A stretch of DNA of 64,000 bases from Vermamoeba vermiformis (taxonomy: Eukaryota). Below the pieces are notes generated by a model, which was not told the DNA's origin, ran no database searches, and saw nothing but the letters and a program-made list of their open reading frames with translations. The position numbers were made by a program, and so were the translations under genes. This document shows, piece after piece, positions 4,112-45,395 of the stretch. Where the stretch lies: assembly GCA_045837725.1 (NCBI GenBank), contig JBEWZL010000270.1, forward strand, positions 186,001 to 250,000. The letters are read 5' to 3'. How positions within the stretch are numbered: position 1 is the first letter of the stretch; each line of letters begins with the position of its first letter.

Positions 4112-4255
4112 TGAGTATTGAATCAAAAAATTCCTTGTCTTATTGTTGCATTTAATTCAGAGCAAAAAAAGACGATGACGGTCGTAAAAAGCTTATTACA
4201 CACGTGGTAACGCTTGCTGGGATCTCCCGGCTGTTTCCTTATACAAGATGTACTT

Positions 4256-7200: not shown

Positions 7201-8223
7201 CTAATAGTTGATAGCTCAAAAGTATCTTACATTTTAGGGCCAAAGTAAGGATCTGGCCTTCCGTCAGTTTTGCATACGCACTTGACACATTGCTGGACTC
7301 TGTCGTGCATTTCTGCTTCAATGAACAACGGCAGAGCTTCCAAAATAAACCTTATCAAGGCGGCACTAAACCCAAATGCCGATCGTAAGAGGGTCTTCTC
7401 ATCTCTGCCACTACGTGATCTAAAAATGAAATAATGGTTTCTAAGTACGCATCTCTCGGAAAGCGAACAAAATCTTTGCCGATGTTTTTGAGTTGCTTTT
7501 CGGAATCGATATCGGAGTCAACCGAACTAAAATCCAATTTTCTGCCTATGCAAGCGTTCTCTTCTTTTCTCAAGCTGTGCTCTTCAATGATATCCGACAA
7601 ATATTCAATGCCAATTCTGAGTTATTAATTAGCTTATTCTCCATAATTACTAACACAATGCTCGCGTCAATACCTTAAGTTAGTGTAGCGCTTCCAATCT
7701 ATCCGCTTATTTTCTCCGTCTGATGCATAATTAGCTTTGAAATAAACCTATCGACAGATATGATTTCGAATGCAACGTACCTAAAAAAGTTGGAAGAAGA
7801 CATTTTACACCATCGAACGTTATGAGTTCATCAATATTGACTATGTGCAGCGGAGCGATATTGGAGCCAAACAAAGCGATCGCCATTGACTTCCAGAAGT
7901 TCTGATGGTTGGTTATCCCATTGAAACGATGGCAAACCAAACAAAATCGTTCTAAATATATACAGTTAAATATAAGCAATTATAAATGGTCGATATAAGC
8001 CGCAGTAATTTTTAGAGATTTATTATTGATTTTCGAAGCTGATCGACTTACCAACATTTGAAAAACCGGCTGAAATGATTATATTTTGCACTAACTCGGC
8101 ACTTAGAGCTTCAAACAAATTTTCTCCGTTGTTATTTGGCTGATCGGATTTTTGCTTTTTTGTTTTTCGTGGATTCAAGCCTTGCCCAGCTTCAGTAGCC
8201 TTCCTTTTGGCTCCGCTAAGCAT
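4256..8223 (-). pseudogene. F-box-like paralog 2, apparent frameshift (pseudogene or sequence error)
   Basis: Same exon series as paralogs 1 and 3. Near 7350-7400 the homologous frame (ETIISFLD..) hits TGA TAA, while the next homologous block (FILEALPLFIEAEMHDRVQQCV) lies in another frame. No plausible intron was seen. Confidence 0.5.
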
Positions 8224-8375
8224 TGTTTTTCATATTAATATTAATAAAATGTTTCGTTGTGGTGCTAAACTCAATTCAAACTAAAAGAGTTTGTTTTTTT
8301 TTGTGTACAAAGAACGGATCCGTTCTTGGCAGATTGAGCGGGCTCATTAAATAGTTATTCAATTGAAAGATTTAT

Positions 8376-10617
8376 TTATTTCTTCAGTGCAGTAAGGAGT
8401 TCATTCGAAAAATCGATGTTGACCCCCGGATGTCGCAGCTGCTTGAAAATCATTGACCAAACTTCAAGAGGCGCTACGTCTTCAAACGCTTCTAATCGCA
8501 GCTTCATCATGTTAATTAACGAGTAAGTCAGCCTGACGAACTCTTGTTGCTTTCGCTTGTTTTCGGCCACCATGTCAATGACCTTCTTTTTAATCTCGCC
8601 AACGGATTGAATCTGATTTAAGGCACGATTCTCGTTAAGGACGGTCGTAAGTTCGGAGTAGACATAGTTCGAGGTGAAAGCCGGACCAGGAAGTACGAGA
8701 TCCAGATGTGTCAAAGTGTCATTGTTCTTCAACTTCGCTATCATATTATCTGCCGCGACCTTGTCTACCGTTGTTGGTAACTTTATCGATCTGAGCGATG
8801 AATTCGCCCCAAATACACTGCCAAAACTGCTGTAGTAATCCTCGGTGATGAAGTCATGCGGCATCACGATTGCCAATTCTTCCAAAGCGTTGTTGAGTAC
8901 CAATCCTTGACACAATAATTGCGCGGAATTTTGCGGCAACAGAATCTTCAAGCCTTTCAGTGAACGGTTGTTCGTGAGTGCAACGGAGATCGCATCGATT
9001 TCCTCAGCGCTTAATGGCATCACTAGCGATAACTTCGTGAGCACTGTGTTGACACTCAAAATGGCGAAAATGACGGGAAACAGATCTTTCGAGGACTCTA
9101 AGTGCAGCTCTTTCAACGTCTCGCTCGATTTGGCCGCAAGGAGTAGGCTTGTAGGAACTTCTTTCATTCCTTTGAGGTCCAAGCGAGTCAAGTATGATAT
9201 TTTCATATTTTGATCGTTGGGAAATCTAGGGAATTCAGTGTTGGCCAATCGGAGATCAGTAATGTGCTGACCGCTGTAAATGATGTCCCAGATCCGTTTG
9301 GGTAATTTGATCTTGTCCACGTCGAGTGTCTTAATGTTGTGATTATCATACGCTGCTTCAATGAACACTTCTGAGTCCGCACAAACAGCTTCTGCAATCT
9401 TGACACTTCGTACTTTAGAAAATCTGACCACATCCGCCATTTGACCGATTGCTGCATCTTCTATTTGGACCATCTTCATTTCCAAATCAATAATTCGAGG
9501 GTTTTCACGTAAAACTTCGAGGAGCTGCGGAGTTGTAAGGATTGAGTGCCAAGTTCCGTTCAAAATTAGTCTCGTTATCGTGTCGTGGCCGGCGATGCCT
9601 TCACAAATATTCTTCCAAGCGCTAATTGTCAAACCAGACTTTAGTTCTATAGTTCGTAACGTTTGATTTGTTCGAAGAGCGTGGGCCCAGTGATGGTTGA
9701 TAGGATCGTCTTTCTTGAGGACCAGATCCTTGACGCCAACCAAAATGAATTTATTGTCGCTTTTGGCAAATTCATTTGCTTGTTCCTTATTATATGCTAC
9801 GTAAACCTGCCATATAAAAAGTTAATAGGAGACAACATGCAATGTTAATAAAAATCGCATTACCGGATCGCGAAAAATTGTCAAGCGTTTAATGCTATTA
9901 GCCGACTCAAATGTTGACTTAAGTTGTTGTAATTGCGATTCTGTTAAGCTGTCGCGTGAGACTTCTATTTCTGACAGTTTTGGGGCGTCATTCAGTGATT
10001 GACACAAAACGTCAAAACTGTTCGGTTGAATTGTCCAGTGATCAAATCTTACTGATTCTATATGAGAAGATTTAATAATGTTACTTATGAATCCAATGTT
10101 TTCCTCATTAATGTTGATCGAGTGCAAGCGAAGTTCCGAAACGGATTTGTTTTTGGCCATCCCTTCTGAAATTGTTGTCCAATCCGCCGTTCTGAACTTG
10201 GATTCGGATAAATCGATAGAGCATATAGTCGTAGTTGATTGCAATAGTTTTTTCAGCTTTTTGTGGTCCAGATCCTCGGGCATGGGAATTGTTAGGTCGA
10301 TCTGACAAGTTTTTTCCAACAAAAAATCACCAGAAGAGTCTAATTAAGTTAGTTAATGCGACGAATAATTCAAAATATTACCTTTTTTGCCCTTCGAGGT
10401 CCCCTTGTCCAAAATCAGTAATGCAAACAACGGATTTCGAAGCATTGTGGTGTGTTGTCAATAACTTCTTAATTTTTCGACTGCTAGGAATTGAGTGTTC
10501 GTCAATGTAATTAATGCCTACAAAAATGCGAACGGTGATTCAAAAAACCGAACTGTGTGATTTTTGAGGACGAATTGGAATTTTTGGGGTTGCTAAAATA
10601 TCTCCTTGTTCTTGCAT
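8376..10617 (-). CDS. Leucine-rich repeat (RNI-like) protein with a C-terminal F-box-like helix
   Basis: Repeated 'L..N.TL..L.L' units (LRTNQTLRTIEL, LSVNTVLTKLSL, LKNNDTLTHLDL). Exons reconstructed from ATG 10617. C-terminus reads APLEVWSMIFKQL. Confidence 0.75.
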
Positions 10618-10751
10618 ATTTAATAATAATAAGCAACCTAATACCTTGAAGGCTATTTTACCTATACAAGTATAAAGTATTATGACAGTTCATTAATCAG
10701 TTTATCAACACGTACGCGCCGTAAAATAACGCCTGTAAGCCATCCCTACTT

Positions 10752-13700
10752 CTACAAGCTATCAATGTCGAACATATCCTTCATCGATGTCCATTTCTTG
10801 ACTCGTTCATTGAGTGATTTGATTTTTGTGTCGAACTTGTCGTTCTTGATTGCACTCAAAAACATGTTCGAGTCGAACAAGACTGAGTTGTACATGCACA
10901 AATGTTTCAGTTCTTCGTTAATAGAGCACGCTGATAACAGCACGATAAATCTCTCAACATCCGCAATTTGTTCTAAGGCTTGTTCTTCTGAATTGTTCTG
11001 GTTGCTCTCTAACCAATTGACGCACGCCGTATGTAACGCTAAGATAATAATGAGACATAATTTTCGAAAGTTTAGGGTTCGTTGTCATACCTGCCAAATT
11101 AGTCTTCTGAGGTTCGCATACCCAACTTGCGTGCCAATTCTGAACATAATCTACTCCAAAGTGACGACCAAGTACTGCAATTACACAAATATCGTCGCTG
11201 CCGTCATACCGATTCACCATCCTCTTGATTTGAGCGTTGCGACACGCTTGGTACATTTTGCGTGGACTATATTTCAACAATCGCTTGACGAGGGAATAGA
11301 ACTGATTCGATGTTAGTATTTGGGCCTAAACTGAGAAATTTCAGAGACATACCGAATATTGATACTTCTTTGGCAAGTTTTCTTGTAGAGACAGCTGTCG
11401 CGTAAAATTGAGGGAATATTCGATCAAGTTGGTTGTTGTGGTCGTGGAGCACTCAACGAAATCAACGACCTAAGGACCAAATATAAGCAATTGGCCAAAT
11501 CGTTAGACATACACTTACCATTCTATGTATTCTTAAGAACATGTCAATAAACGCTTCGTCGTGGGGCCTGTCCGTCTCCACTCTGCTATGTTGTCGACTA
11601 TACAACAGGTCTTGAATAGTGAAGCAGAACACTTCGATGTAATTCTCTTTGTCTTGCTCCGATAACAGCGGCGATAACCTCTCGTACAATTTGATCGCTG
11701 TCTCGTAAAAACTGAGATCGTAGATTTCAGCTCTAATGAATCCGAGCAGCTTGCGTAAAAAATGCTGAATTACGCCAAGAGAAAACTTCTCCGGATAATC
11801 TTGATAAATCTTAACTAACCGCTTCATAGCGTTCATGTTAACCTCCTTTTCGGCTTGCTATTTACAGCTGTTAAATATTGACCCATCAATAATAAAAAAA
11901 TCAACGAAACTTACGATTGTCATTTCATCTGCGCAATGATCTATCTCTCTGTCATTATACGGGTTGAATTGGACTATCTCCGGGTGATATTGCGTGTACT
12001 TAAATCCACTCTTTGGTATTCCGCCATATCCTGATCCAACGCGACGATCCTCGTCAATTTCGTAAATCCGCGGTGCTGCATCCGCGAACTGAAATATTTC
12101 TTCAATAGCTTTCTCCGGGTTTGCTTGGATTTTGCGATACTGCTCAACAGCTTCTTTATACTCGTGCAAGGTCAAGGGAATGAAAGGGACGCATTCTGTA
12201 GGATAGATATTCTCGCCATGACGACGACTCTCGCCAAATCGTTCAAAGTGAGAAGGCACGACTTTGATCAAACTATCAATTAACTCCAAAATCTTCCCGC
12301 CATTAATCATAGCTCGATAACACGCTTCATCGAACAGCGCTTGAAATTCAGCCAAGTTGATTTCAAATCCGATGGACTTGTCTAATACTTTGGCCACTAA
12401 GCGATCAATCTCCGGTTCAAATTCTTCGCCAATTGCATTTTTTCCTATGCAAAATATAATTTAACGCCAATACACCTTTTTTCAAAATAATTTACCAACT
12501 TACCTAGACGAGCGTACTGGTGCAATATCCTAGTGTTAGGTACCAAGGGTTTTGGTCTTGCAAAAAAAATGCTGTCTCTTATCTTCGAACCAGCAAGCTT
12601 GATAATAGCGTCGCCGTACCTCGGTAAATACTAAACAAGCGTTAAGTAGTGCAAACATTAATATATGAACTTAAGTTGAACGACATACTTTTTTCAAGCG
12701 AGCACCGAACAGCGTTCCAAGTTCACAAAAGTTTTTCCACAAATTTTGCTGGCCTTGAGTTTCCATATTGAATATTTGCATAGGTTGTGCTAGCAGCTGC
12801 AAGATGTTTTCGTTCAGTCGATCGAGACGATCGTCATCGATCCATTGTGGCTTCTTTACCAAGTCCATAATTATGATAATGAAGAATAATCTAAACCAGA
12901 GACCACATTATACCAGCATTTCTTTAGTTTTGAGAGGTAAAATTAACGTACCCGCCCGGAGGTCTAGCCACGATTCCTTCGCTAAACATGTCAAAAATCT
13001 TCAAGACTTGCTCTTGACTAAATTCCTCGGCCCACGCTTCTCTCGTAATTTTGCAAAGTATTACGTATCCCGCATGCACTAACCCTTCGTAACTGGTTGA
13101 AACAGCCTCCTGTGCCATTCTTCACCGCGGTTAAACTTAGTAGAACTTAATATTTAGTTAATCAATTACCTTATCAACATATCTGCATGCTTTTCTGGAA
13201 TTCTGGCACAAAAATCGACCAATTGCAATGCAAACGCTTTGGCCTCAAAGTCATCGCTGCCGTCGAAGTGTTTCTGCATCATTTCAAACACAAAATCCTC
13301 GAGCTCTGCGGCAATTTCGTTAGATATAACCATATAACGGCAATCAATACTAACCTTGGTCCTCCTTGCCAACCATGCAATCCACCATGAGATATTTCTT
13401 TGACTTACGTTGGTGAGAAAAGTCGGAAATGTCGTAAGTAATTTCTTCTTCGTTGTCGTCATCGGATTCAACACCATCTTCTGTAGCCCGTTTATAATCT
13501 GAGTTTCCAAAATCGAACGGATCATAATCGGAATCTTCATCGTCGTTTTCCTTCGTTCCATTTAAATAGAATTCGACTATTTCGGTCACTAGTCGTTTTA
13601 CCAAAGATTGCACTTCGCTCTTGGGAGCCTTTTTAGCGTATCTATTCAAAAAACTGTTTACGCGTAACATCATGTCTACTCTGAATCGTCGATTGTACTT

Positions 13701-14892
13701 AACGAGCTCATAAATAGCCAAAGCTTGCGGGAAAAATCTAGAGGGACACTGCGTTAGTCACGTTCAAGTAAAAAGATTTCTTGCCGTACATTTGTTTGCT
13801 ATCACCGAAATAGAAACTATGATACTCGCCGCACAGCAAATAGACACACTGTTTCACTCGCTTGTGCATTCCTGCTTCGATAAGCAAAGGCAAAATCTCG
13901 ATAATGAACGCCAAAGTGATTCCAAGTAATCTGCGGGGTCGATTGATCCGACACAATTCTGGTGAGATCGTGTTTAGTAGCTGGATAATACTCGTTGTGC
14001 ATGCGTCGACTGGAAGCTTAAATCGCCAATTAGCAGGTGTCTCTTCGTCTCTTGGAACTTCATTAGCTATTTCTTCGTCACCTCCGTCCCTTGGAGCGTC
14101 ATCCGCTATTCCTTCCTCATCTTCGTCGCTTGGGACGTCTTCAGGCATTTCTTCGTCTTCTTCGTCTTCTTCGTCATTTTGCAGATTTGACTGCTCGTTA
14201 TCTTCTTCCTCTGAGCTTTCAGATTGATATTTGCCTCCTCTTCCGTGCATGTAGTCATCTTCTTCTTGATTCCGACGCAAATGTTCCTCCACTGCGCTGA
14301 CCATGTTACCAATCGCGTGTCTGGCGAAATTGTAAATCTAAGCCCATTATGATAAACAGATAATACCTTAATTTAAAATAGCGCGTCCAATCCATGTATT
14401 TTTTGTCTCCATCTATTGCAGAAAAAGTAAATTAAAATCTGAAAGATCCAAATCCACGATCGTCGTACCTGAAAAGGTTGGAAGCAAATACTCCGCTGAA
14501 TCATATTCAACAGTGCCTTGAATATTTATAACTCGAAGAGGAATGATGCCAGAGCCGAAGGAAGAGATCGCCAATGACCGCCAAAAGCTTTGATATTTTG
14601 TAGCAGCATTAAAGCGGCGACAAACCTGGCATAATCGCCCTAAAAATAGTATTATTTGCTATAATGCATAATCCACGGCGATCGAAGATGGAGGACTTTT
14701 TTGCGGATTTATTTCGATTTATTGAGCTTTTTTTCGTAAGATCGACTTACCAAGGTTGGAATAACCAGCCAAGACGATGATATTTTGAATAATCTCAAAG
14801 CTAAAATTGTCAAACAAATTTTCTGAGCGGTCCATTTTGTGTTTTTTTGTCGATTGTGGATTTGGTTCGCTCTCAGCCTTTCTTTTAAGCAT
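10752..14892 (-). CDS. Large multi-exon F-box-like protein, paralog 3
   Basis: MLKRKAESEPNPQSTKKHK..LFDNFSFEIIQNII|..RLCQVCRRFNAATKYQSFWRS. Collinear exons, ending KKWTSMKDMFDIDSL*. Confidence 0.72.
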
Positions 14893-15027
14893 TATCGTTA
14901 AGCGCTGACTCGTTTAATTTTATAAACCTTGTAAAGGCTAGTGGATTGCTTCGTTGATTTTCAAAAAAAAGAAAAACCGATCAGGGACTGTCTCTGTGCT
15001 CGCTCATTTATTCCCTCGTAAAGATCA

Positions 15028-18000
15028 TTACGCGCTATTTTCATCTTCGCCATCTACTTTGGGTCGCAATGTTGGAGGAGCCAACTTCGCCAAAGCAGGC
15101 TTGGGTTGTGCAGGCAAAGGTCGGCTTTGCTTCACAGGGCTTGGCTTGGGTGCAGGAGCAGGACTATTAGCGCCACTATTTTGTGCGCTATCCATTTTCG
15201 TAAAGATATTATTCTTTACGTTGTTCTTGGATGCGAAACTGATCGCGGTTCCGTTGGGACTGGATGCTTGCTCAGTACTTGTTTTAGTCTTGTCCACTTC
15301 CAAGCTGCCCTTAGGACTAGCACTAAGCTTAGCATTGGCACCGCTAGTAGTCACTCCTGCGCTTGGTGCCGAAGTCGATTTTTCCATTGAAGTGCTCGGG
15401 GTTTGAGTCGTGGATGCGCCAGTAGAATTGGACGCAAATTCATTTGATACAGCTGGCGAGACTTTAGTCGGCGACTTGCTCTTGGGACGAACAGGTTTTT
15501 GAGGCAAAGGCTCGATGGTGATTGTCGGGACATCCAAAGATGAGCCCACTGACGCGGATTGTTTAGGTCCGTCTTCTATTGATGAAATATCAAGAGTTAA
15601 TAACTTAGCCATATAAAAATACACCGAGTAGTACCTTTGTTAGACTTGGAAGATTTTTTCTTCTTGGAATCGTTAAGTCCCTTGGCGTCACTCAACGACT
15701 TCTTCAACGAATCGCTGCTCGATTTGACTTTTTCTTTTTTGTCTTTTTTCTCTTTCTCCTTCTCTTTTTCTTTCTCCTTGCCGATGTTTTTCTTCGACAA
15801 CCGCTTCGAGCTGCGCTTCTCCTTGGCTTCTTTATCTTTCTTGCCACGCGGCGACAAATGCGCAAGTTCAGCTGGGATTTTTTGCTTGTCTTGTTCGCTG
15901 GCTTGATTAACGTTCACGATTGAAATAGTGCTGCTTCGTTGCTTAGTCACCTGATCACTCGGTGAGCTGGCAGGAAGATTTGAAGCTGTCTTGCGATGCG
16001 ATCGATCCTTCTTCTTCGAATCAACGACAGTAAGTTCAGGAACCTTCACTTCTTGTGACACATTTGGCGAAGTCTGGACAGGTGGCGTTGGCGACTTTTC
16101 TTCGACTGGTTTGGCAGGCAAGGGCTTGTTGTGGTGATGGTGTTGCTCGAGCTTGGCTTCTTCTTTCGGTGCTGTTTTCTCTTCGACAACTGGCTTGGCA
16201 GGCAAGGGCTTGTTGTGATGATGATGAACCGGCTGGGCTTCTTCCTTGGGTGCTTCTTGCTCGACTTTGAGCTCTTCCTTGGCAACCTCTTTCTTCTCCT
16301 CAACAGCAGCAGGAGCAGTAGGAACGTTGTGTTCGTGAGGGTGAGTAGTATTTGCTTCGACGTGCTCCTTAGTTGCAACGACCTCGGGAGATTTCTCGGG
16401 TGAAGATAGTTGAGGAGCGTGAATTACATTCTTAAACGGATCCTCTGAAGTGCTGAGTTAGACTCGAAGACTTTCATACATCGCTACTACTTACCGTTAA
16501 CTTCAGTAGCATCGTTTTGCGCTCTCAGAGGAATCAAATCTCCAAAGAATTGATATGCCACGACTGATACGGGATAGATAATCTCGTTCTTGTTGAACGA
16601 AGGCACGCGTCGACCACCAAGTCTGCACCATAAAGCGTTAGTTACACGTGCGCCTTTCTGCCCAAATACTTGTATATAAGCTTACCTCAACGCGTTTAAT
16701 ATAAATTTAGTTGAAATGAGCTCTTGTTGAACGAGCGGACCGATTCGCGATGCGGACAAATCGAGTCTTGACATCAACGCAGCAACTTCCTCGGGGATGT
16801 CGTCGTATTCGATCTATTATGATGAAATTATTTTATCTCTATACTTAAGATTAGATTTAAAATGTTCAATGGTATGTCGTCTTACTGTCGCTTTTCCTTT
16901 TTTAATGTCCCAGATCCAGTCGATCATGTTGTTCTTTGCTATTTCCTCTAACGGCTCCCTATGTCAATCGTTATTATATGCCAATGCAAGAGTTAGTAAC
17001 ACGAGCTTACTTCAATGGGCACCACCAAATGTCAGTGCCGTAAAATGCATGCAATCTCTCGTGCATGCGGAATAAGTTTACGCCACAAATAGGTTTATCC
17101 TTGATACAAAAAATTAGTAGGAGAATATGCAATATTTTAAATCTTACGTCAAATGCGTCCAAGAAATTTTCAATGTTTCGAGACACTTCAAGTATGTACA
17201 GTTTCTTCTTTTGTGTGTATTTGTTAGGCAATTCAACGACCATTCCAACGCGCGAATACTTTGAACCTGACAAGCTCTTCACAATAGAATGCGTTGTGCC
17301 TATTAAGGCCGTATTAGTATGATCCATCAATGCTCGAAAATGCGAGTCACACAAGGGTCATACCAATGCCGCTGTACACGATTAAATCTCCTGTTTTGAA
17401 TTTGTCTTTGAACTCTTGATAGTGGAAAGTGCTTTCTTGTGTAAAATGAAGGCGAGGAGGCGTTTCCTGAGTACGTGTCAAAAATGTCATCGTGTCAAAA
17501 AGTGAAAGAATGCGAAACGTACTGGAACGGTCGAGTAATAAAATCGCAAGTGTACATTGCCGACAATCGCGTTAGGGTCCTAAATAAGGCATAATTAATA
17601 AAGTACTCATTTCAAAAACCAGAACCAGTAGATTTTCCAAAATAGTAAAAAAACGAAAAATCGGCATACTTTCCGATCAAGAATTCTTTTAAATATAGAA
17701 ATATACGTACCACAGCTTTCTTTCCTGGTTTTATTTTCAAATCGAACCATGAATCGAGAATATGCTCGTGAGGAAACGTCGTTGGCAAACCGACATTGCA
17801 TTCGCCAATCATTTTATCCGAACCGAGCGTGCTGTGTGACCATACTTCGAGCTTTAATTCTGCCTTATCGTCTACAATTTCGCTACAGATCGGAGTTAAT
17901 AAATAGTGAAATTGAAATTGCACGTGCGGACAACATCCAACAAATTTTAATTAAATTGAATTTAAAAGAGTTAAAGTATTAATTATAGTCATATTATTGA

Positions 18001-18524
18001 ACGAAGCTAATTATAAAAATATTTTGTATTCTTTGAGCGTATCTTCTCATTGTCGTACGAAAATTTGGAGGGCGAAAAGTCAAACAAATAAATGCGATTT
18101 CTATGAATGACGAAATTGGGGTACCAAATAGCCTACTTACAAGAAGAACAATTCCTTCCAGCACGGATCTACTTCGTTCTTTTGAAACGAAGTTTTGAAT
18201 TTTTGTTTATCGTAGCTTAACTTGACAAATGGGCTTCCAGCACCTAAATTTTCATTAATTACCGTTCAATATAATATAATTAATATATTTACCTTTTTTC
18301 AAACGCACTAGACCGACTCCCTCCATCACTAAAATACTAAATTAATTTCGGTTCAATGTGCCGATAATTAATTGGCAGATCAGGTGGTTAATATGGTAAG
18401 AGTACTATTGAATATTACTATCAAGCATACCATAAACAATAAGCTTCTTGGGGCTGCGATCCCAAACTTCTTCAAGTGTCTTGGGAACTTGCCCTTCGTG
18501 TGTTTTAATTGGCGGAGATGCCAT
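15028..18524 (-). CDS. C2-domain protein with permuted papain-like (NlpC/P60) domain and long Pro/Lys/Ser low-complexity tail
   Basis: C2 motifs (PFVKLSYDKQKFKT, LKLEVWSHSTLGSDKMIGEC), then KFKTGDLIVYSG..SKYSRVGMVVE typical of permuted NlpC/P60. The tail contains two HHHHNKPLPAKPV repeats. Confidence 0.65.
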
Positions 18525-18862
18525 ATGACAATCAAATAAATAATACTATGTACAAATAAATAAGTTTGTGTTGTTAATCAATGATTCAGATTTTTATGGC
18601 AGCGAGGAAGCAAGCCAAGATTTTTTGACACGCAACACAACAATTTAAAGAGATTTCGCTTATAAAAGTGTTGAAACAAGAACAAGATTACCAGAACAAT
18701 ATTTCAAGAGCGTAATTGTGCGAATTATACTCAGATCCCGGATCGTATCCGGTTGCAGAACGACCTTTCGTGTTACCCACAGAAGGTTCAAAGGTACTTT
18801 ACGTCCAGTTAAACAGTCAAATACTCATATTATTTTTTCGGTTAGCAATTCAAGTGTTCGCG
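18506..18862. repeat. Direct repeat copy A (~350 bp), covering the C2-gene start and upstream region
   Basis: catatgacaatcaaataaataatactatgtac...cggttagcaattcaag aligns with 23797-24160 with few substitutions and small indels. Confidence 0.95.
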
Positions 18863-19260
18863 AACAAAAAATTAATAAATCGAATCCATCCAACAGCACA
18901 ACCACAACGAACTTGAGTATCGATTCAAAATCATGCTCAATTGATTTACTGGCATACCGAGTACCGATTGCACGATGAGTAAATGTTATGAAGGCACATG
19001 GACACTGTGTAGAGGTTGGATGGCACGCGTGTAAAATTTTCAATTTTGATCCTCAACCAACGCCTGCTATTTTACTATAACAAGCCTCGTATGTAAAATG
19101 TAAGTTGAACTTTACTACGTTGTATTAATCGTTTCAGAAATTACATATGTAATATTATTTTACCGTTTTTTCAATTTATTTTGCTGGTCCGAAAGATTCT
19201 TCAGTGTAATGCAGCGCTAATTAATAATGATATTTTATTTAGCTCACATTTCAATGGTCC

Positions 19261-19890
19261 TTAATCGAGATCCGATAAATCAAACTGTAAGCGCAACGGG
19301 ATCGCGGCTGGCTCTGGTGACTCTTTTACAAAGCGAAGGATGTGGCACACGTTAGCGGCTATTTCAATCAATTCGCGAGTACTCTTTTTAGCCTTGGGCG
19401 ATACACCATTAGCGCACTTAAATCTGGCCTCAATGCTCGCAAGTTCAATGGCAATGTCAGAGCCGCCATTCAAACGAGGGATGCGCAAGTCGAAATGAAG
19501 TTTGTGCTTCTCTTTGTGGTCATTACCGACGCAAATATACGGAGTATCAAGGTCATCACAGTAAGCGGCCTAGAAAATAACTGATTAATCATGATGCGTT
19601 CAAGAGGCAAATCTGTCCATACTTTTTTAAAATCACAAACGGACAAAGCCGCAGAGGAATTTTTAAATATAACTCGAAATATTTACTATGGTTTCATGCT
19701 TTAATAGCGTAAATTAATGGATTTCCTACCTCAGGAGCCTTGCATCCATATTCGCTGAAAACAATCTTTCGGGGACGTCTGACGGCACTAACGATGAGCC
19801 AAACACCAACTCCAGCGAATCCTGTGGCCATAAACGTAATGAATAGGATTAGGCCAGTAAGAAGGTAATAGCTTTTAGTCTCGTTGCAGA
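19261..19890 (-). CDS. Small two-exon hypothetical protein or gene fragment with a TM segment
   Basis: Hydrophobic YYLLTGLILFITFMATGFAGVGVWLIVSAV..KAPE|GTAGG intron, TAG|AAYCDDLD..DLSDLD* splices in frame. The start is unclear. Confidence 0.35.
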
Positions 19891-20068
19891 TTCAATCAGA
19901 CTACAACTCCGCCTTTTGCTTTACCAAAAATTTGCCTTTGAGGGCCACGAATCTGGCGTCCTTCAATAGGCTAACTCTATTTATTTAAAATACTCCTCTA
20001 TGTAAGTAAAAATTCAAAAAATCATTAACTGTGCTCAGACCAAATTAGGAAATTCTCCACGTACTTTA

Positions 20069-23000
20069 CTAGTGAATCTTCAATTTCTTTTTGGTTCTCT
20101 TCTTCTCTTTGTCTTCACCATACTCAACTTGTTCGTGTTTTCTTTTCTGAGATTGGCGCTTGGGCCCTTCAGTTTGGATTTTATTACTGTGCTTCTTCTT
20201 GACTGATTTTTCTTCCAGGGCATCATCCATTTCTTTTTCATGCATTCTACGCATAGTATGTGCATGAGTTGTTTCCACTTCATCATCATTACTCTCTTCA
20301 TTGATGCAATTTTCTTCTCTGACACTATCTTTTTCCTTCTTAATGACTTCATCAACCTTTTTCATATCTGTGTTGAGAATTAAAAATAGCTCCCCTAGCC
20401 AACCTTTGCCATTTGTCTCAATAAGATTCTCTTGGTACATTTTTAATTGATTTTGCACTTCTGGGCTTTTAGCTTGGGCAAGCCATGTGCCTGGTGGTAG
20501 GTTAGGTGACATCAAGACATAGAAGTGTCCCTCCCTCTGCATCAAGCCACTTACGCCTTGAGAATTCAACTCCTTTGCAATACTGGATGGTCCAATCTGA
20601 TAACAATTGTCATTCAAGCTTCTTGTTTTATTAAAACTTACTTTTGAATTATTGGCCTTCATATTGCGACATTGAACAAGCAAGAATACAGTTGATTCAA
20701 GGAGTGCATCTTTCAGCTGTGTTGCCAATTCCTGTTGGTCATTTGTCTTATTCATTTCATCTAATTGTTGCATTTGTTCTTTAATATTCATGATTTTCTG
20801 CATTGCTTCTGTTCCTTGCACAACAGGAACCATCACATCTGCAAAGTGTGAGTTCTGCACATTAATAACAATACATTGCTCCTGTTTTAGGGTCTCAGAT
20901 ATTTGAGAATTCCTCATCAAATCATTCACTTTAATTTGTTGTGTTGCACAACCAACCCCAGAGAAGCAGACCTGTGAATTTTTAATGAATAGTGAAATTA
21001 ACCACAGTATGACAGTACATACGTAGTGATTGTCCTTTGGCCAGCTTGGAACAATATCTTGCAGCTTAACAAACTCTCCTGCTTGAGCTTGCATCCTATA
21101 ACGTGCCCAAAGAGAAGTTGCACAAGCTTGCTCAAGATAATCTCCTTGAGCTTGTAGCCCATCTGTCCTAGTAGACCCAACAATATCACCAATGACTGGC
21201 GTGAAGGTTTTAATTAACTTGGTTGAACTTTCAGGGGGTGTCAAACTCTTCAAGGATTTTCCCTGCATTTGAATTGTGAGAACAATTAATCATAGAATGA
21301 TAGATAACATCTGATAAAGGATATTTCATGCATACCAGCATCTCTGAAAAGTATAAAAAAGGCATGGTGTAGCATCGAGATATCTTTGCATTGAATTCAG
21401 ATTCGTTAAATTTGATTGGTAATATTGCTCCTTGTTCTTCTAATTGTGAATAGGTGACTTCAACATTACTGTTGACGAATGATTACTAATATTATTTAAA
21501 TTCATTTGATGTTTGCAACTTACTCTGCAATCTTGGCAGTTGCAACTCGTTCTAAGCCAAGACAACATTCAATTGTTAAATTCTCCCACACATCTTCAGG
21601 CACTCGATAACTGGCTGCAGATCTTCTCTGGAAGTACTTCTGTGTTTTTATGTTGAATTCTCTCAGAATACTTTTTTCATCTTCTGCTGAGAAATTTTTG
21701 TTCTTTATGATATGCAACAGTTTAGTATTGAGAAGTCGGTGCAAGATTTGAACTGCACGAGGGATTCCAAGGCAGCGTTGCCAAAGTGAGTGGATAATTT
21801 TTTTGCCAGCCTTTGATGGTTCTACTCTGGTCAGTTTTGATCCTTCTGTCAAATATATATTTTGTATCACTGTGTCACAGTAGTCATACTTCAGCAGTGG
21901 ATTTAATGGCAGAGTTAAGTCAACCCTAAGCACTGTGGCATCTTCCAAGAGACTAGCTTCACGTGTTGCCAAACCAGTCATGAAAACAAAAAAGCGAATA
22001 TCCAACTTATCAACAATTTGCAACTTAGGAGCAGCGTCATAAAACAGCTTGATGACTTCAAATGCAAGTGTGCGAGAGCCTGCTGGAACAAGTAATACCT
22101 GAATAGAAAAAATCAATCAGAAATTGTTTGGAGATTGTTTGACAACTTACTTGTGACTCATCAATATTGATCAACAATAACAGAGAGTTTTCATCTTCTT
22201 GTTTGGGATGTTCTTGAAGTACTAACTTGACAAACAATGAAAGCAATGAGATAAGCTCTCTGTTATTTGATCCTGGCAGTAGAAGTTGATTCGCCTCCAA
22301 GAACTTCCTGTCTTCATCTCTGTCGACTTCCAATGGAGTAATAGTGACCGGTTTACCATCGATAGTGACTTTCCTGCCTGCAAATCGAATGCTGATTGCT
22401 GATTCAACAACTTTTCGACATAAAACATCTACAGCTTGACAGATGATTGCATTGTCGTTGTTGTTCGTGATTTGTATCATATTCTTTGGTTCGGATGCTG
22501 ATATTATCAACGACCTTTTGAGCGTATTCTTAAGCACGCGTAAGAACTCTACATGGTCTTTATCAAAAGCTGGATCATATGGTGATTTTGTGAACTTGTT
22601 GTATAACTCCTCAAATGAGTATGGACATTCTTTCTGTGCTAATTCAACCTTCTTTGGATTTGTATCTGCTGCAGCGACTGGTGTTCTGTCTACCAAGAAT
22701 GAGTACAAAACATTCTTGTCGTGAAACGCTCTGATCGCCCATTCGAGCAACAGGCGTGTTTTTCCGTAGCCTGCAGTTGTTCCAAGAAACGCTGCCAGAG
22801 GTTTTGCTTCTTCGTTACCACTTCGTTCAATTTGCATGTAGTTCAAAAAACAGTCGTGCAACAACTTCAATACTGCTCGTTGACGGTTTAAAAATGGCGG
22901 GTGCTCCATATTCATCCATGCGGTTGGTAGATCGATTCCGCGAGGCAGCGGGAAAGTAAGTTGGTCGGGGATATAAGGGTGCGTCACGTTTGCTCTTCGT

Positions 23001-23395
23001 TGTTGTAGCAATTTCTTTTTCAGTTGTTCTTTCAATACTTCTCCCGAAATTTTACCATCGTCCACGGCCTCCAAAACACGAGAAATTGTAATTTCAGATT
23101 GGTTGGTGACCGCTCTTGTTGCCAAAAAGGCTTGTACAAATTTCTCTCGCAATCGGTGGACACATATCGGGGTTACCTCCGGGAGTACGGTTTGCATCCC
23201 GGCAAGAAGGATGAAGTTATGCCATTGAGAATCGAACCAATCCCCAAGACGGAAGACCTGGCATATTCGATCCGCGTCCTCGTCATCACATCCTATAACG
23301 TGACGAATCCAATTTTTATATTCTGTCGCTGTCCAGTCTTTATTCGGCAAATTCTGATTCGCCAGATTTTGTACGGCTGACGAATTATAATCCAT
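20069..23395 (-). CDS. Crinkler-like protein: N-terminal header, P-loop NTPase and PD-(D/E)xK restriction-endonuclease-like domain
   Basis: Walker A GTTAGYGKT, Walker B LLINIDESQ, FFVFMTG and GIPRA motifs. Downstream NVQNSHFADVM..VFLLVQCRN is REase-like, followed by a basic NLS-like tail. Exons splice in frame via GT-AG. Confidence 0.7.
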
Positions 23396-23796
23396 CTAAA
23401 AATTAAAATATTATTGCCCTTCTTTATATTTATTAATTTTTAAATTATAATTATACGTAAAGTATTATAACACTAAGAACTTACAGCTTAAAAATACCAG
23501 TCCGAAACACCGAGATACGTTTTTGGAGGGACCTAAAATCTCTTCTATCAACTGAAAATTCCTTTAAAAATATATAAGCATAAGCTACTAAATAGAGTAA
23601 GCTGTGCTAATGTGGTACTGCGGATCTAGTAAAAAAAAAAAGCAAAAATCTGCTAATTTTAAAAAAGCTGATTTATTACGCGTGCGTTTGCCGATATTTG
23701 TTCAACAATTTCGCCTTCAAAAGTACCAACAGGAATCTGTCACTCATAAAGTGTGCCTTGTTCACGATAATCGTTTTGTCCGATCTGATCTTAGCA

Positions 23797-24160
23797 TAAT
23801 TGGCGAGCATATGACAATCAAATAAATAATACTATGTACAAATAAATAAGTTTGTGTTGTTAATCAATGATTCAGATTTTTGTGGCAGCGTGGAAGCAAG
23901 CCAAGATTTTTTGACACGCAACACAACAATTTACAGAGATTTCGCTTGTAAAAGTGTTGAAGCAAGAACAAGATTACTATTGTACTAGTACAATATTTCA
24001 ACAGCGTAATTGTGCGAATTAGTTAACCAAAGATCCGGATCGTATCCGTTGCAGAACGACCTTTCGTGTTACCTACAGGAGGTTCAAAGATACCTTAGAA
24101 CCTACTTTATGTCCAGCCAACACTCATATTATTTTTCGGTTAGCAATTCAAGCGTTTGCG
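23797..24160. repeat. Direct repeat copy B (~350 bp)
   Basis: Paralogous to 18506-18862. It lies upstream of the Crinkler-like gene (-) and of PhoD (+). Confidence 0.95.
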
Positions 24161-24298
24161 GTGAATTCTCCCTGTCTTGGTTGCTCGTGCGATTTTGTGT
24201 TTCATTATTTGAATGATCCGAACAAGAAGAGCAACTGATAGTCATTAATTTATCTATCAATAGTTGCTAATTCTTATAATTAACTCAATTGGAATAAA

Positions 24299-27200
24299 AT
24301 GAAGCTCAGTTCTCTTCTTGTGTGCGTTGCAGTTCTCTGCATCGCGCGTTTTGCAACCGCTAAATTTATGTGGTCTGGCGCAGTCACTGATACATCGGTA
24401 TGTAGTATATTAGACTCACATTCTTATTAAAAGAATTATTCTCTTTGGTTTTAACATCAGATTCGGTTAATCCCTTTCGCAACGTAATCTTTTATCCAAA
24501 TGCTTGATAACAATTATTTAAGCGACAATATCATTTATTCTTATATTTTATTTCATATAATCAACGAAAATCTCAATTATTAGAGAAAGATTTTTTGGCG
24601 GCATACGGCCCACATCCAAATCAACCCTTTTCGCGCATTGCTGGTCAGTATTAATATTAATTATCGTAGGCCTCAGTCAGAGCTGTTGGTTATAAAGGCG
24701 AAACTTTCGTTATTAGCGAGACCTCAGATCTTGCTAATCCTCTCTTTACCACCACTATCCCTGACGACTTTGCCGCTATTTCGGTAAGACTTCATACACC
24801 CTAATTATTTATATTAATATGATTGCTCTATTCATTGCATTACTTGTTCGAGATGGATCTCGAGGTTGACCTTGTAGAATTCCCATATTAATTTTATTTC
24901 ATATTTAATGCGTATATTAATTGTAATATACACGTTAATGCATAGTAGATATTTATTAATGGAATTCGCAATACAAGTTTGACGTCTGGCAGTTTTGCCG
25001 GATTAAGTTGACACACGAACTACCGCACAATTACTAATACATTACTATTTAGATTACTGGTCTGACCGAGGACTCCCTCTATTATTATGGTATCCCCTCG
25101 TTGAATGAGGTTGGTGCCTTCTTGACTTTCAAGATCAACAAAGCTCTGAACTTCACTGTAAGTAGACACGATCTGCAACAAACGAAATTCTTTATTGATT
25201 TTATTGTACACAAGCATTATAATAACATATTTAATTGTAATTGAGCATATAATCAAATGTAATTGAAGCAAAATTAGCTTGCAATCATTGAACTGTCAAC
25301 AGAATCGATTTCCCAACCACACTTTTAATCGGGTTATTTACGCTCGTTAATTCTCCAATAGTCTTAAAGTCATTATTATGCACTGTTTAAATATAATACT
25401 AACATCAAGTTATTAAGGCTGTCGTTGGTTCTTGCGGTGAAACCGGATCTGTCTCTGAAAGCTACCTCAAGGCTGCCCAATTGTTCCCTCACATTGTTAT
25501 TCACATGGGTGATTTGCACTATGAGGACATTGATGTTGATGATGAAAGCCTGTAAGTGTTCGCGATCCGATCAGATGCACCACATCCGCGTGTTTTGATT
25601 CAGTTAAATATCTAACGGTATTCTTTTTATAGCTATGATGCTGCTTATGAACGCGTTCACGCTTCATACACTCAACGTACACTTTACAGAAACATTCCGG
25701 TATGATACAGATCCACACAAACATTGCGGATCACACGGCATTTTCTAACTCGTGTTTATTATTCCAGATCGCCTATATGTGGGATGACCATGATTTCCGT
25801 GGTAACAACAAGGTTGGCGATGGTCCTGGTCGCCCTGCTGCTCGGTAAGTTGATCTTCCGATCTTGTTTTCATTCGTTACACGCGGATCACAATACGTCA
25901 GGTGACGATTTTTGTGGCCTGTAAAGTCACGTGAACGTTCCTGTTTTATATCACCATGCGTTAATTAATATTTTGCACTTTTTACCCTCGCGGCGAATTG
26001 GCAGGCAATTCTAACGGTCATTTTGTTTTGCAGCGCTGCCTATCAAAACAACGTTCCTCACTATCCTTTGGGCATTGGTAACGCCACTGTCGATGTTCCA
26101 ATCTATCAAGTAAGGCACCTATATTAAATTGATTATATAAGGCATTGGTACTAATACAGCGTTAGGCCTACACCATCGGTCGTGTCAGATTCATTATGCC
26201 CGATCTCAAGTCTACCGCTACTTCTGGCACCAATGTTATGGATGATACTCAAATGACTTGGTTCTTGAACGAGTTGGGCCAAGCTTCTAATTACGGATTG
26301 GTCGTTATTGTTTCTTCTCAACCTTGGATTATTGCTCCTGTAAGTGCTCGATCTTGACGTCAATTTTTTTTATACTACTCTAAAGAGTGGCTAGTATATG
26401 TAGTACATGGATGCTAATGTTCCGAATAATTAGGGAGGTGATGGTTGGTCTGTGGCTGAAAAGAAGAAGATCGCCAACTTCATCGTCGAAAAGGGCATTA
26501 CTAACGTCGTTTTGATCGCTGGTGACGCTCATATGGTAATTTAACATATACTTATTCGAAATAGAGCAAAATATTGATTTTCTATTTTTAGGTTGCTATT
26601 GACGACGGATCGAACTCCGATTACAGCGACAATGGTGGCGCTGGTTTCCCTGTCTTCCAAGCCGCTGCTTGGGACCGTCCTGGTAGCTCTAAGGGTGGTC
26701 CTTACACTGAGGGCTGCTTCACTGAAGCTTTCAGATCCCAACAATTCGGTGTTTTCGAAATTGTTGACTATACCGACAAGATCTGCTTCACTTGGGAAGG
26801 TAAAAATTCCAAAAAAATATCTAAATGATTCGGAATCGTAACGCTAATTTCTTGTTTTATTCCTAATTAGGTCACTCTATCCATTCTGACACTCCTCTCG
26901 TTTCTTTCGAGAAGTGCACTCCTACTACCGTCAAGGGAACTGGTGGTGACCAACTTTTCTGCACTTTGACTCGTCCTGGATGGGTAAGTCACCTGCTTTA
27001 AAGCACGTGCCACATCGTTTCTAACCGTGCATTAGGAATGGGGTGTTCTCGCCGTCGAGTGCGTCATCGCCGCTGGTCTCTTGATCATCGTCTTGGTCTT
27101 GCCTCCCAAGCCTCTTAGCCGCAAGGTACGTACCTTACTCGTTGTTTTCTGTGTACGTGAGCCATGGCTAATAGAACTCGCACGCAGAGATGGATCACTG

Positions 27201-34306: not shown

Positions 34307-34516
34307 ATAATAATAATTGTACATTACATGCAAGTAAATTTTTAATGATGCGTTCTTTTCGTTTCTTGAGTTATAGCTGCTGGGCACTGTCTCTGTCATT
34401 TTCCTTCGTCTTTTCAACATCAGGAAGGTTAAAACAGTCTCAATCCAAGCAACTGTTAATCAAATAAAAAAATAATATTCTGTACTTCTTTGATCGAACA
34501 CTTATTTATTACACAG

Positions 34517-35685
34517 CTACTTGAAATGCTCGCATGGACATTTATTTTCATGTGCGTAGTTTATGCAATCTATATGTCCTTCTGACATTGCATTGGCGCA
34601 AGTTGCTGAATCCCAATCACAACCGTTCTCATGAGCATATTTTAGTATCTCCAAATGGCCACCATATGCTGCTGAAGAACAAGTTTCTGTGTCCCAATCA
34701 CATCCATTTTCATGAGCATATTTGAGTGCTTCTAAATGTCCATGCTGTGCTGCTGAAGTGCAAGTTGCTGAATCCCAATCACATCCATTCTCATGTGCAT
34801 ATTTTAGTATTTCCACATGACCCTGAGAGGCTGCTACAGCACAAGTGTATGCATCCCAATGGCATCCATTCTCATGAGCATATTTGAGCACTTCCAAATG
34901 TCCATGCTGTGCTGCTCCAGAGCAAGTGTACGAATTCCAATGGCATCCATTCTCATGAGCATATTTTACTATCTCCAAATGACCACCAAATGCTGCTGAA
35001 GTGCAAGTTGCTGAATCCCATTTGCACCCATTCTCGTGAGCATATTTGAGTGCTTCTAAGTTTCCCTTCAGTGCTGCTGCAACACAAGTGTATGAATCCC
35101 AATGGCACCCATTCTCATGAGCATATTTGAGTGCTTCTAAGTGGTTGCCCTCTGCCGCAGAATGACAAGTCCTTTCATCCCAAGGGCATCCATGCTGATG
35201 AGCATATTTGAGACATTCTAAATGCCCATTACTTGCAGCTAAGTGGCATGTGTATGAATCCCAATCACATCCATTTTCATGAGCATATTTGAGCACTTCT
35301 AAATGTCCATGCTGTGCTGCTGAATAACAAGTTACCGAATCCCAAGCACATCCATTCTCGTGTGCATATTTTAGTAGTGACAAGTGGCCATTTGTTGCAA
35401 AGTCTTCACAAAATGATCTTGAATCTACTCTGACTTGTGTAATTTTGGCTCTCTCTTTTATTCTGCGACAAAGTGCGTTGAATCGTTTCGATGTAGAAGA
35501 AATAAATGCAAGTCTGATGACCGGAGTTGGCATGCTGGCCGTTGCTAAGTAATTCAATATCTCAGTCCACATATCGTCATTCAACTCGATGTTCTGCTAC
35601 TCAATTGTCAACGAAATTATTACCAAAAAATTAAGAAAATGTAAATATTTTTTAAAAATTAAATTAAAAAATGGCTTACCATCAT
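34517..35685 (-). CDS. F-box-like plus short ankyrin-repeat protein (giant-virus-type repeats)
   Basis: Micro-exon ATGATG|GTAAG, then LNDDMWTEILNYL (F-box-like) and 11 tandem 27-aa units GHLE.LKYAHENGC.WD..TC..AA. Confidence 0.88.
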
Positions 35686-43655: not shown

Positions 43656-43949
43656 CTTGCTATTGCTGCCCACTGATTAATTAATATGAGCATAAATGAA
43701 CATTTCAAATGATTACGATACTCCTAACTGCCTTTCAGCTAACAGAGCACGTGCCACAATGGCGAAATTTCCCAACGACGCGGCACGCCATCCTCCCATA
43801 TTAACTAAAATGGCCGTACATTTATATCGTATTACATTTACATAATAAACTACGCAGCTGAATTGGCCTGAAGTCGAATTTCGCAGCCGGGCAAAATGAT
43901 CCAGTTTTATTATTGTAGCTTCGAAGCGTTTATCGCCAGGTTTATTAAC

Positions 43950-45085: not shown

Positions 45086-45395
45086 GGTTGCTCTCAATAT
45101 TGCTGAACATTAGAAATTGTTCAAATGGAAACGATCACATGATTGCGAGTCTTTGAAATCTCCCGAATTTGGCTGCTCAGCTCCGTATCGTTGGATGCGA
45201 ACGCTTTAAATTCGAAACATGTTCTATTGTACAAGCATTGTTATGTTTGACTTAGTTCCATAATATAATCTTGATAATAGCATTATTTACTATAAGTATT
45301 TTTATTGGCTATTTACACTCAGCAAAAAGGTTCGGTCCGAATGGACGGAATACGATCGTGCTACATCGTCATCTAACACAAACCCAAGCGTGGAT

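Follow-up and report, generated by a model that had tools for sequence, protein, structure and literature searches.

How did the upstream region of one gene come to stand, as two direct repeats, on both sides of a segment that carries other genes? The question is raised by a locus in 64,000 nucleotides of Vermamoeba vermiformis DNA (GCA_045837725.1, contig JBEWZL010000270.1, positions 186,001 to 250,000), referred to here as the window, whose own numbering is used throughout. The original prediction saw a Crinkler-like NTPase-nuclease cassette that had inserted into a divergent promoter, possibly by an undescribed mechanism of mobilisation or capture. We tentatively favour, at a probability of roughly 40%, a one-off, old break-repair rearrangement in which a 4.9-kb segment was inserted at a staggered break, and not transposition.

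The repeat pair itself was predicted correctly. A segment of about 5 kb between direct repeats of about 350 bp was confirmed by both blastn and global alignment. Copy A occupies 18506-18862 (357 nt) and copy B 23797-24160 (364 nt); they lie about 5.3 kb apart, one on each side of the two-gene segment. The repeat search returned three co-linear direct blocks of 170, 39 and 50 nt (at 97%, 92% and 92%, respectively) with start-to-start distances of 5286-5296, and 0 inverted pairs. These blocks are merged by blastn into one match of 86.9% over 373 columns (E 4e-120), which is the sole internal match of 18300-24400 within the 64-kb window. In the global alignment, there are 324 matches, 16 mismatches (9 transitions and 7 transversions) and 41 gap columns, the ungapped columns being 95.3% identical; in total, 16 substitutions and about 12 indels separate the two copies. 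The edges of the repeat are sharp, since the 300 nt outside them are at shuffle-level similarity, with alignment values of 19.0 vs 19.7 ± 2.5 for shuffles beyond the left edges and 17.0 vs 19.3 ± 2.6 beyond the right edges. The repeat runs from TAATTG to GCG, and the predicted absence of TG..CA ends is therefore correct.

As had also been foreseen, copy A contains the start of the C2 gene, with the ATG at 18524 (minus strand) and the six first codons at its left end, and the remainder is the C2 upstream region. Copy B carries a degenerate, frame-broken stub of this start, in which the ATG is kept (23810, minus strand) while a 5-nt deletion shifts the reading to a different frame of 44 codons. 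The stub ATG lies 415 nt from the NTPase ATG at 23395, both on the minus strand, so the predicted placement upstream of the NTPase gene in the same orientation holds as well. Copy B is upstream of both neighbouring genes, separated from the NTPase ATG by 401 nt and from that of the PhoD-like gene by 138 nt. The differences between the copies are spread unevenly. Repeat positions 20-180 hold 5 events, all of them substitutions, as against 21 (11 substitutions and 10 indels) in positions 181-357 (Fisher p = 0.0035).

On the left, the locus is bordered by the 5' part of the C2-domain gene (16800-18524, minus strand; exon 1 at 18431-18524), which continues below 16957. The C2 label stands, with a PF00168 match on 17612-17950 above the Pfam cut-off (E 1.7e-5, 25.4 bits vs 22). 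A spliced contig in the data set X12, from a relative of a lineage diverged by about 10%, matches 18431-18525 with 6 differences and intron-like skips, and codons 1-6 are part of the C2 mRNA in this relative. On the right lies the PhoD-like phosphatase gene (24299-26825, plus strand), which has many short exons and introns of about 230-280 nt. Its label holds only in part, through two co-linear, exon-level matches to PF09423 that are both under the cut-off (E 9.6e-4 and 0.21). In the X12 relative, the PhoD mRNA, again seen as a spliced contig, begins by 24244.

At the ends of the inter-repeat segment (18863-23796, 4934 nt), neither inverted nor direct terminal repeats occur. The segment is composite and includes, besides the NTPase gene, a piece of a small multi-copy gene. 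This extra-copy piece of about 1 kb (18895-19902, minus strand) was delimited by read depth and by loose ends at 18895 and 19902. Its source-read depth is 1252-1746, compared with a single-copy level of about 580-690, which indicates paralogs elsewhere in the genome, and it starts 33 nt from the right edge of copy A. A small ORF within it consists of two exons (19261-19569 and about 19731-19891, minus strand); the product has a hydrophobic stretch and a 102-aa exon, and one homolog was found, P0024, which is 72% identical. No Pfam domain was detected in the four scanned ORF pieces of the segment, reverse transcriptase and integrase domains included, and Rfam and tRNA scans of 16000-27000 returned nothing. 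The tandem repeats present are trivial ones. Neither the NTPase gene nor the small ORF has a second copy within the 64-kb window. Other local duplications do occur in the window, namely diverged sets of tandem paralogs with a spacing of 5.7-6.5 kb. The idea of the segment as a clean cassette was not borne out.

The putative P-loop NTPase gene (20069-23395, minus strand) encodes 1016 aa in six exons (23395-22151, 22098-21524, 21468-21336, 21262-21023, 20971-20642 and 20596-20069), separated by five GT..AG introns of 45-73 nt. All exon joins agree with the spliced homologs P0019 and P0021. The protein is 74.8% identical to P0019 over 966 columns. Its head appears to be variable, as its first 81 aa bear no relation to the N-terminus of this 75%-identical homolog. 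A P-loop (GKT) is present at residues 211-213 and a string of Walker B type at 406-413, and the C-terminal tail is basic, with a pattern like that of a bipartite NLS at 992. All five aligned family members share GYGKT and NIDE without change; the strict GxxxxGK[ST] pattern is not matched. In the C-terminal region, where a Crinkler-type protein would carry a restriction-endonuclease fold (PD-(D/E)xK), a D...QxR/K-like pattern was read by eye. AlphaFold gave a mean pLDDT of 44.2 for the C-terminal part of a homolog, which is unusable, and 46.4 for a second model, where the best Foldseek hit (E 0.3, TM 0.12) is meaningless. The N-terminus of a homolog gave an impression of a SAM-like look, which Pfam did not report. 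The GC3 of the gene (0.38) lies within the range of its neighbours (0.31-0.53), and so nothing marks it as incoming.

The family to which this protein belongs appears, from sequence searches, to be nearly orphan and lineage-restricted. The protein matched nothing in Pfam, NCBIfam, PADLOC or the PDB sequences; a PADLOC row for GajB with P0014 (E 0.0064, 13.6 bits) was treated as noise. With phmmer, 1.84 billion representatives yielded 10 relatives only, all of exon size, and among 7994 scored candidates there were 0 longer relatives of exon 1. The protein-atlas hits for exon 1 (AAA_22, KAP and RHSP) all score below 0.9 and are leads only. A protein language model pointed to an unnamed cluster of 1815 members, with Mucoromycota as the commonest phylum (score 0.94), and more faintly to RHSP (score 0.85, in 11% of members). 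The 213-aa product of the C-terminal exon, P0015, was found on 6 contigs, which possibly stem from several assemblies of one organism. Metagenome contigs scanned with exon 1 gave nothing. When the family alignment was used for the scan, a single contig of 2.3 kb came up, with a match of 70 aa only and no useful flanks, and viral contigs gave no match.

The name Crinkler-like is retained only as far as the P-loop motifs go. Neither strict nor relaxed patterns of LxLFLAK, the motif of the N-terminal LFLAK/ubiquitin-like header as defined in PMC6131194, occur in the 1016-aa model, and it contains no HVL..P string of the HVLxxP type that ends the DWL region. Pfam searches of exon 1, P0019 and P0014, with E values as high as 10 allowed, likewise gave no Crinkler family.

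Read depth speaks to the copy number. In the source reads, the NTPase gene has a depth of 447-858 and copy B of 404-558, at or near the single-copy level given above. The NTPase gene is present there in one copy at the 85% level or more, together with a minor variant that extends over the flanks as well. Contigs of the source reads with zero differences bridge both edges of copy B (23381-23837 and 24048-24495), and no contig among the listed joints and loose ends in this data set (X1) breaks at a repeat edge. In these reads, neither the segment nor the repeat is a high-copy element.

The relatives speak to the age. One water-metagenome contig joins 24195 to 18867, and in this relative, copy A is longer by 33 nt, which match the PhoD side of copy B. 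A second one joins 23802 to 18504, its copy B keeping an uncut C2 stub. Each of these joints is seen on one contig, at depths of 6.3 and 2.3. Among the contigs listed, relatives that differ by 2-12% carry both junctions between the segment and the repeat, and the rearrangement is therefore old. This comes close to the case that the original prediction had named as speaking against it, in which relatives carry the cassette as an old syntenic gene. An empty site, in which C2, a single repeat and PhoD follow each other without the segment, was sought in X1, X5 and X12, and no such joint was found. In a diverged X5 contig, similarity on the PhoD side reaches as far as 24132, and so crosses the junction that an insertion of the repeat only would place at 24195/6; copy B is possibly present in that lineage. 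A reading of the two X5 joints that go back as circles or tandem arrays was rejected, because a recombinant of A and B would have a B-like left and an A-like right part, the reverse of what the contigs show.

Under the favoured reading, about 0.5 kb of intergenic DNA would once have lain between the divergent C2 (minus strand) and PhoD-like (plus strand) genes. There, a break with a long stagger would have opened, reaching from C2 codon 7 to a point about 100 nt ahead of the PhoD ATG. A 4.9-kb patchwork of the small multi-copy gene piece and an intact P-loop NTPase gene would have been joined in, and fill-in of the overhangs would have left a stretch of 360-395 nt on both sides. The insertion would have survived probably because each flanking gene kept its whole upstream region; the upstream region of PhoD would be native and unbroken. 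Both inner edges of the repeat look derived, that of copy B because its stub consists of C2 codons 1-6 with a 5-nt deletion and a broken frame, and that of copy A because the A of the relative carries the 33 nt of PhoD-side sequence. This fits the duplication of a once-contiguous C2/PhoD intergenic region. The gap of 33 nt between the edge of copy A and the extra-copy piece is expected if fragments were stitched together at this edge. From these features, we infer the staggered break and the direction in which the event ran. Against insertion, it has to be noted that the source of the NTPase gene is unseen, there being no second copy of at least 85% in the source reads apart from the minor variant, and that a scenario in which only the 0.4-kb repeat moves needs an equal number of junctions.

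Such a scenario is a templated insertion of the promoter only, which is possible but somewhat doubtful. The interval from C2 to PhoD would then have housed the small gene and the NTPase gene from early on. Some 50 nt ahead of the point where the PhoD transcript begins, a break would have been repaired from the nearby C2 5' region, and the pasted stretch of about 395 nt (codon 7 to -390) would be copy B. In the excerpted text of PMC11724301, templated insertions are described as local or distant, sometimes with multiple fragments, from a few nt to more than 1 megabase in size and derived from fragile regions, and the copy fits this range. It requires the same two junctions, and it agrees with the neighbour-like GC3 of the NTPase gene, with the 401-nt upstream region and TATA-like strings that this gene has of its own, with the other local duplications in the window and with a segment common to the relatives. 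However, the closeness of the extra-copy piece to the edge of copy A would be a coincidence of about 9% by our estimate (66 of 735 nt), the insert would sit about 50 nt from the X12 PhoD mRNA start, and the diverged X5 contig remains similar as far as 24132, beyond the junction expected here, which counts for less if that lineage holds copy B as well. It is improbable that the locus was once a tandem segmental duplication of about 5.3 kb, most of whose second unit has since been deleted. The tandem paralog sets of the window have a similar spacing, but extra steps are required, no second NTPase gene or small ORF is left in the window, and the edges are sharp, with similarity outside them at the level of shuffles.

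The readings that involve a mobile element fare worse. An LTR-like or dispersed repeat, or an assembly artefact, is extremely unlikely and is already largely refuted. A coding segment between direct repeats about as long as LTRs would suit it, but copy A includes conserved host coding sequence, the inner genes bear introns, LTR ends and retroelement domains are lacking, the repeat depth is at or near single-copy, and the differences between the copies are unlike those of a collapsed or duplicated assembly. The features of a TIR transposon or a Helitron are also missing. The segment ends read AACAAA... and ...CTTAGCA without hallmarks of either, and the end-to-end TIR test gave 19 vs a background of 17.2 ± 2.6. 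It is very unlikely, too, that the NTPase(-nuclease) gene is a self-mobilising selfish unit whose staggered cuts of about 0.4 kb in compact divergent promoters duplicate the whole promoter. Its architecture resembles the NTPase and nuclease module of the Crinkler-type proteins, which reviews derive from transposons (summarised in PMC5289972), with a nuclease part that is putative here, and the variable head and the six P0015 contigs would be in line with mobility. Against it stand the single copy in the source reads, the composite unit, the missing terminal repeats, an event that is old and common to relatives, and six contigs that may be one organism. If it were true, the host genes would be intact with the incoming gene behind a copy of a host core promoter, of which the C2-proximal half would still be nearly unchanged. 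A new mechanism, which the original prediction had considered, is not needed, since staggered-break fill-in and templated insertion are both known outcomes of break repair that explain long flanking duplications.

With insertion of the segment as the preferred origin, copy B would have come to lie 0.4 kb ahead of the NTPase gene, oriented as in front of C2, and there it may add promoter or enhancer activity. A capture with retained function, in which the C2-proximal half of copy B is under selection and helps to drive the NTPase gene, could be added to either origin model, and is rather unlikely. The uneven distribution of the A/B differences, the compatible orientation and distance, and the 4 upstream ATGs in the would-be leader (8.5 ± 2.7 expected) point towards it. 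However, gene conversion or uneven mutation predicts the same pattern, the sole TATA[AT]A of copy A (18661, plus strand) is altered in copy B, and the stub ATG opens a 44-codon upstream ORF. The unique stretch between the NTPase ATG and copy B (23396-23796, minus strand, 401 nt) may be the NTPase gene's own promoter or leader, as it holds TATA-like strings at 23428 and 23576 (minus strand) and three of the four upstream ATGs. RNA runs under the same species label are mostly 85-95% alike and have zero depth over 19509-23120. The RNA run X9, which comes from a diverged lineage, has no reads on the NTPase gene and is uninformative on expression in the source strain.

If the insertion reading is right, the locus is a natural example of a gene landing harmlessly in a compact bidirectional promoter that was duplicated in the act. 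It would also illustrate a route by which a lineage-restricted gene ends up behind a copy of a host promoter, which bears on how new genes are expressed. This significance rests on known repair mechanisms and not on a new kind of mobile element. Spliced transcripts of the NTPase homologs exist in nature, and the family may deserve structural and biochemical study.

Finally, the locus can be set beside known systems. Crinkler (CRN/CR) proteins carry a C-terminal module of NTPase, HTH and REase (Zhang et al. 2016, as summarised in PMC5289972, PMC6131194 and PMC11064341). In comparison with these summaries, the protein described here has a variable N-terminal head that is followed by a putative P-loop NTPase, another domain towards the C-terminus and a tail resembling a nuclear localisation signal. 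It differs in lacking LxLFLAK, HVLxxP and any Pfam Crinkler or RHSP match, in having its Walker A and B about 200 residues apart, and in a gene with no sign of secretion or of a pathogen. With pairs of LTRs or solo LTRs, the locus shares two direct repeats of about 360 nt around a coding segment, but here the repeat is host promoter and host coding sequence and is not multi-copy, and unlike LTR retrotransposons, it shows no TG..CA and no gag/pol, and its inner genes contain introns. Templated insertions, in the cases excerpted from PMC11724301, likewise copy nearby or distant DNA into a break, at times as several fragments and with little junction homology. Those cases are from yeast mutants and cancers, whereas here a germline event has been fixed and the pasted piece is either the 0.4-kb repeat or the 4.9-kb segment. 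In the isochromatid model of Drosophila inversions, as given in the excerpts of PMC7584159, staggered breaks are filled in and repaired by end joining, and the breakpoints of the rearrangement then bear duplications of 58 and 534 nt, which are also the overhang lengths discussed. There, as here, a local stretch with a length of tens to hundreds of nt occurs on both sides of a rearranged segment, with sharp edges and without transposon hallmarks. The duplications in Drosophila are inverted and flank inversions, while those of the present locus are direct and flank a presumably inserted segment, and it is with this model of filled-in staggered breaks that the favoured reading of the locus is in keeping.

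As the original prediction had described, two direct repeats lie around a segment of roughly 4.9 kb, and its coordinates are borne out by a repeat search, blastn and a global alignment. Copy A occupies 18506-18862 and copy B 23797-24160. The repeat search returned three co-linear direct blocks, of 170 nt (97%), 39 nt (92%) and 50 nt (92%), spaced 5286-5296 apart, and no inverted repeats. By blastn, the copies form a single match (86.9% over 373 columns, E 4e-120), and no further copies of any part of 18300-24400 occur in the 64-kb window. In their global alignment (357 vs 364 nt), 324 columns match, 16 mismatch and 41 are gaps; the aligned columns diverge by 4.7%, and there are about a dozen indels besides. 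The repeat edges are sharp, because the outer 300 nt align like shuffled sequence, both on the left (19.0 vs 19.7 +/- 2.5 for shuffled) and on the right (17.0 vs 19.3 +/- 2.6).

The C2-domain gene (minus strand) has its ATG at 18524, within copy A; its exon 1 encodes 31 residues, and the C2 domain itself is matched in an exon further downstream (Pfam, E 1.7e-5). The stub of this start in copy B keeps the ATG and the next codons minus 5 nt, and opens an unrelated 44-codon frame. To the right of copy B, a PhoD-like gene starts at 24299 on the plus strand, with weak co-linear exon matches to PF09423 (E 9.6e-4 and 0.21, both under the cut-off).

Between the repeats, the predicted NTPase gene runs from 23395 to 20069 on the minus strand; its six exons code for 1016 aa in 3051 nt and are separated by five GT..AG introns of 45-73 nt. 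The predicted model is confirmed by outside homologs: its exon joins are identical in two proteins from spliced contigs of 3.4-3.9 kb, P0019 (1026 aa; 74.8% identity over 966 columns) and P0021 (1005 aa). The product can fairly be read as a P-loop NTPase with a nuclear-looking tail, because all five aligned relatives keep GYGKT and NIDE unchanged, a Walker B string occupies residues 406-413, and at residue 992 there is a bipartite NLS-like pattern. Of the ‘Crinkler-like’ label, the P-loop motifs alone are borne out. The CR modules were reportedly defined by Zhang et al. in 2016. The predicted protein lacks the defining Crinkler head, with neither LxLFLAK-type nor HVLxxP strings, which are the Crinkler motif definitions in PMC6131194 and PMC5289972. 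It has no match in Pfam at E up to 10, nor in NCBIfam, PADLOC or PDB sequence searches. A protein atlas gave leads only: an unnamed eukaryotic cluster (1815 members, most commonly Mucoromycota; score 0.94) and, faintly, RHSP (0.85). Neither AlphaFold model can be used: that of the NTPase part has pLDDT 46.4 (Foldseek best E 0.3), and that of the C-terminal domain, the putative nuclease, pLDDT 44.2. The C-terminal domain has only 10 relatives, all exon-size pieces, among 1.84 billion representatives. The gene is nearly an orphan. Its N-terminal 81 residues (23153-23395) show no detectable resemblance to the head of the 75%-identical P0019, and head domains seem to be swapped in this family. A 2.3-kb metagenome contig carries, at L001:1360-1545, the Walker-A exon and no other of a distant family member (44% over 70 aa). 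Membership of the family therefore extends past the close relatives, and the exon layout differs there.

A piece of about 1 kb (18895-19902) has paralogs elsewhere: depth in the source-like DNA run (X1) is 1252-1746 in bins 18907-19809, which is 2-3 times that of unique sequence; loose ends occur at 18895, 19399, 19436, 19719, 19753 and 19902, and four contigs have other letters at 19462/19463. The ‘cassette’ is thus composite. Downstream of the NTPase gene, the piece carries a two-exon small ORF (19261-19891) with a hydrophobic stretch and a 102-aa exon, whose one homolog is P0024 (72%); it is a small, multi-copy, lineage-restricted gene family. In the diverged RNA runs, 14 reads of expressed transcripts, with 12 start places, match the best-conserved 90 nt of the piece (19406-19496).

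Elsewhere in the window, diverged tandem paralogs lie in 1400-14900, where pieces at 3573-4819 recur near 7876-8125, 10747-11303 and 14361-14868 (68-87%), and 41308-42347 recurs at 47018-48018 (72%); local gene duplication is therefore common in this region. The long ORFs of 1400-14900 and 41308-48018 have no Pfam match. At 34458-35405, at least nine tandem 81-nt units (60-77% alike) lie within a minus-strand ORF with strong ankyrin-repeat matches (Ank_4, E 1e-32).

X1 contigs cover all 30 bins, and zero-difference contigs span both edges of copy B (23381-23837 and 24048-24495). Depth is 447-858 over the NTPase gene and 404-558 over copy B, close to the unique level of about 580-690; neither the gene nor the repeat is therefore high-copy at a likeness of at least 85%, which speaks against the dispersed high-copy element that might have undone the original prediction. 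A minor variant in 16800-25800 is roughly 93% identical to the main one, with, for instance, 26 differences across 360 nt. It extends over C2, the NTPase gene and PhoD at a depth of about 167-200 (about 0.3 of main). It is a second haplotype or a (co-cultured) strain, and the segment is present there too.

The water-metagenome contigs (X5) listed differ from the window by 2-12%, NTPase gene and flanks alike. Both segment-repeat junctions are common to these relatives, because two joints were each found within a single contig. One (23802 to 18504, 4 letters between) passes from the right end of the segment into a repeat with an uncut C2 stub; the other (24195 to 18867, 3 letters between) carries the repeat and 33 nt like 24161-24195 before the left end of the segment. 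The original duplication was therefore of about 395 nt, and a few nt were lost at the inner edge of each window copy. Together with the A/B divergence, the common junctions make the event old and fixed, with no active element. Two further runs are from diverged lineages and have no bearing on expression in the window's strain. The X12 contigs are spliced, since intron-like stretches bounded by CT..AC or GT..AG are missing from them, though the run is filed as ‘DNA?’; their mRNA limits place C2 up to 18525 and PhoD beginning by 24244, with almost nothing on the segment. In the RNA run X9, 51 of 66 reads are below 95% likeness, and depth is zero across 19509-23120. Both bear the same species label, yet lie about 4-14% off the window (16800-25800) even in the exon pieces listed, and the name seems to span lineages that are clearly distinct.

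How the duplication arose is best read from the inner repeat edges, which look secondary, because C2 coding sequence lies at the left end of copy B and PhoD-side sequence at the right end of the relative's copy A. The simplest history leads from a contiguous C2-repeat-PhoD region to 360-395 nt on either side of added DNA. A staggered break with its overhangs filled in would give just this outcome; we give it a probability of about 0.4. The extra-copy piece begins 33 nt from the right edge of copy A, which fits a junction of stitched fragments. A templated insertion, for which PMC11724301 provides the model, would be equally economical, with only the 0.4-kb C2 5' region moving between a resident NTPase gene and PhoD; we consider it somewhat unlikely. 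The others are less likely than these two. A decayed tandem duplication is improbable. A new kind of mobile element is more improbable still: no terminal repeats, inverted or direct, mark the segment, neither a transposase nor a reverse-transcriptase domain was found, tRNA and Rfam scans gave no matches, and the NTPase composition is not odd (GC3 0.38 vs 0.31-0.53 in neighbouring ORFs). Least credible is an LTR, dispersed repeat or artefact; TG..CA ends are absent, as had been predicted. Neither an empty site nor a site without copy B was found in the runs or metagenome scans.

That the NTPase gene captured promoter function from copy B is permitted by the A/B geometry but rather doubtful. The A/B differences are uneven (5 events at repeat positions 20-180, the C2-proximal half, vs 21 at 181-357; Fisher p = 0.0035), which fits kept function of a C2-type core in both copies; however, gene conversion or uneven mutation would give the same pattern. 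Moreover, the single TATA[AT]A string in copy A is altered in copy B, and the NTPase gene has its own upstream 401 nt, with TATA-like strings at 23428 and 23576. A transcript from copy B would include four upstream ATGs, one a 44-codon upstream ORF. That the gene spreads by duplicating host promoters is highly improbable.

The staggered break also has a known counterpart. According to PMC7584159, rearrangement breakpoints accepted as such often carry duplications of this sort as a footprint, tens to hundreds of nt long, and the A/B repeats share this size. What is found here is probably a repair scar of a known kind, in a new instance, around a nearly orphan NTPase gene.
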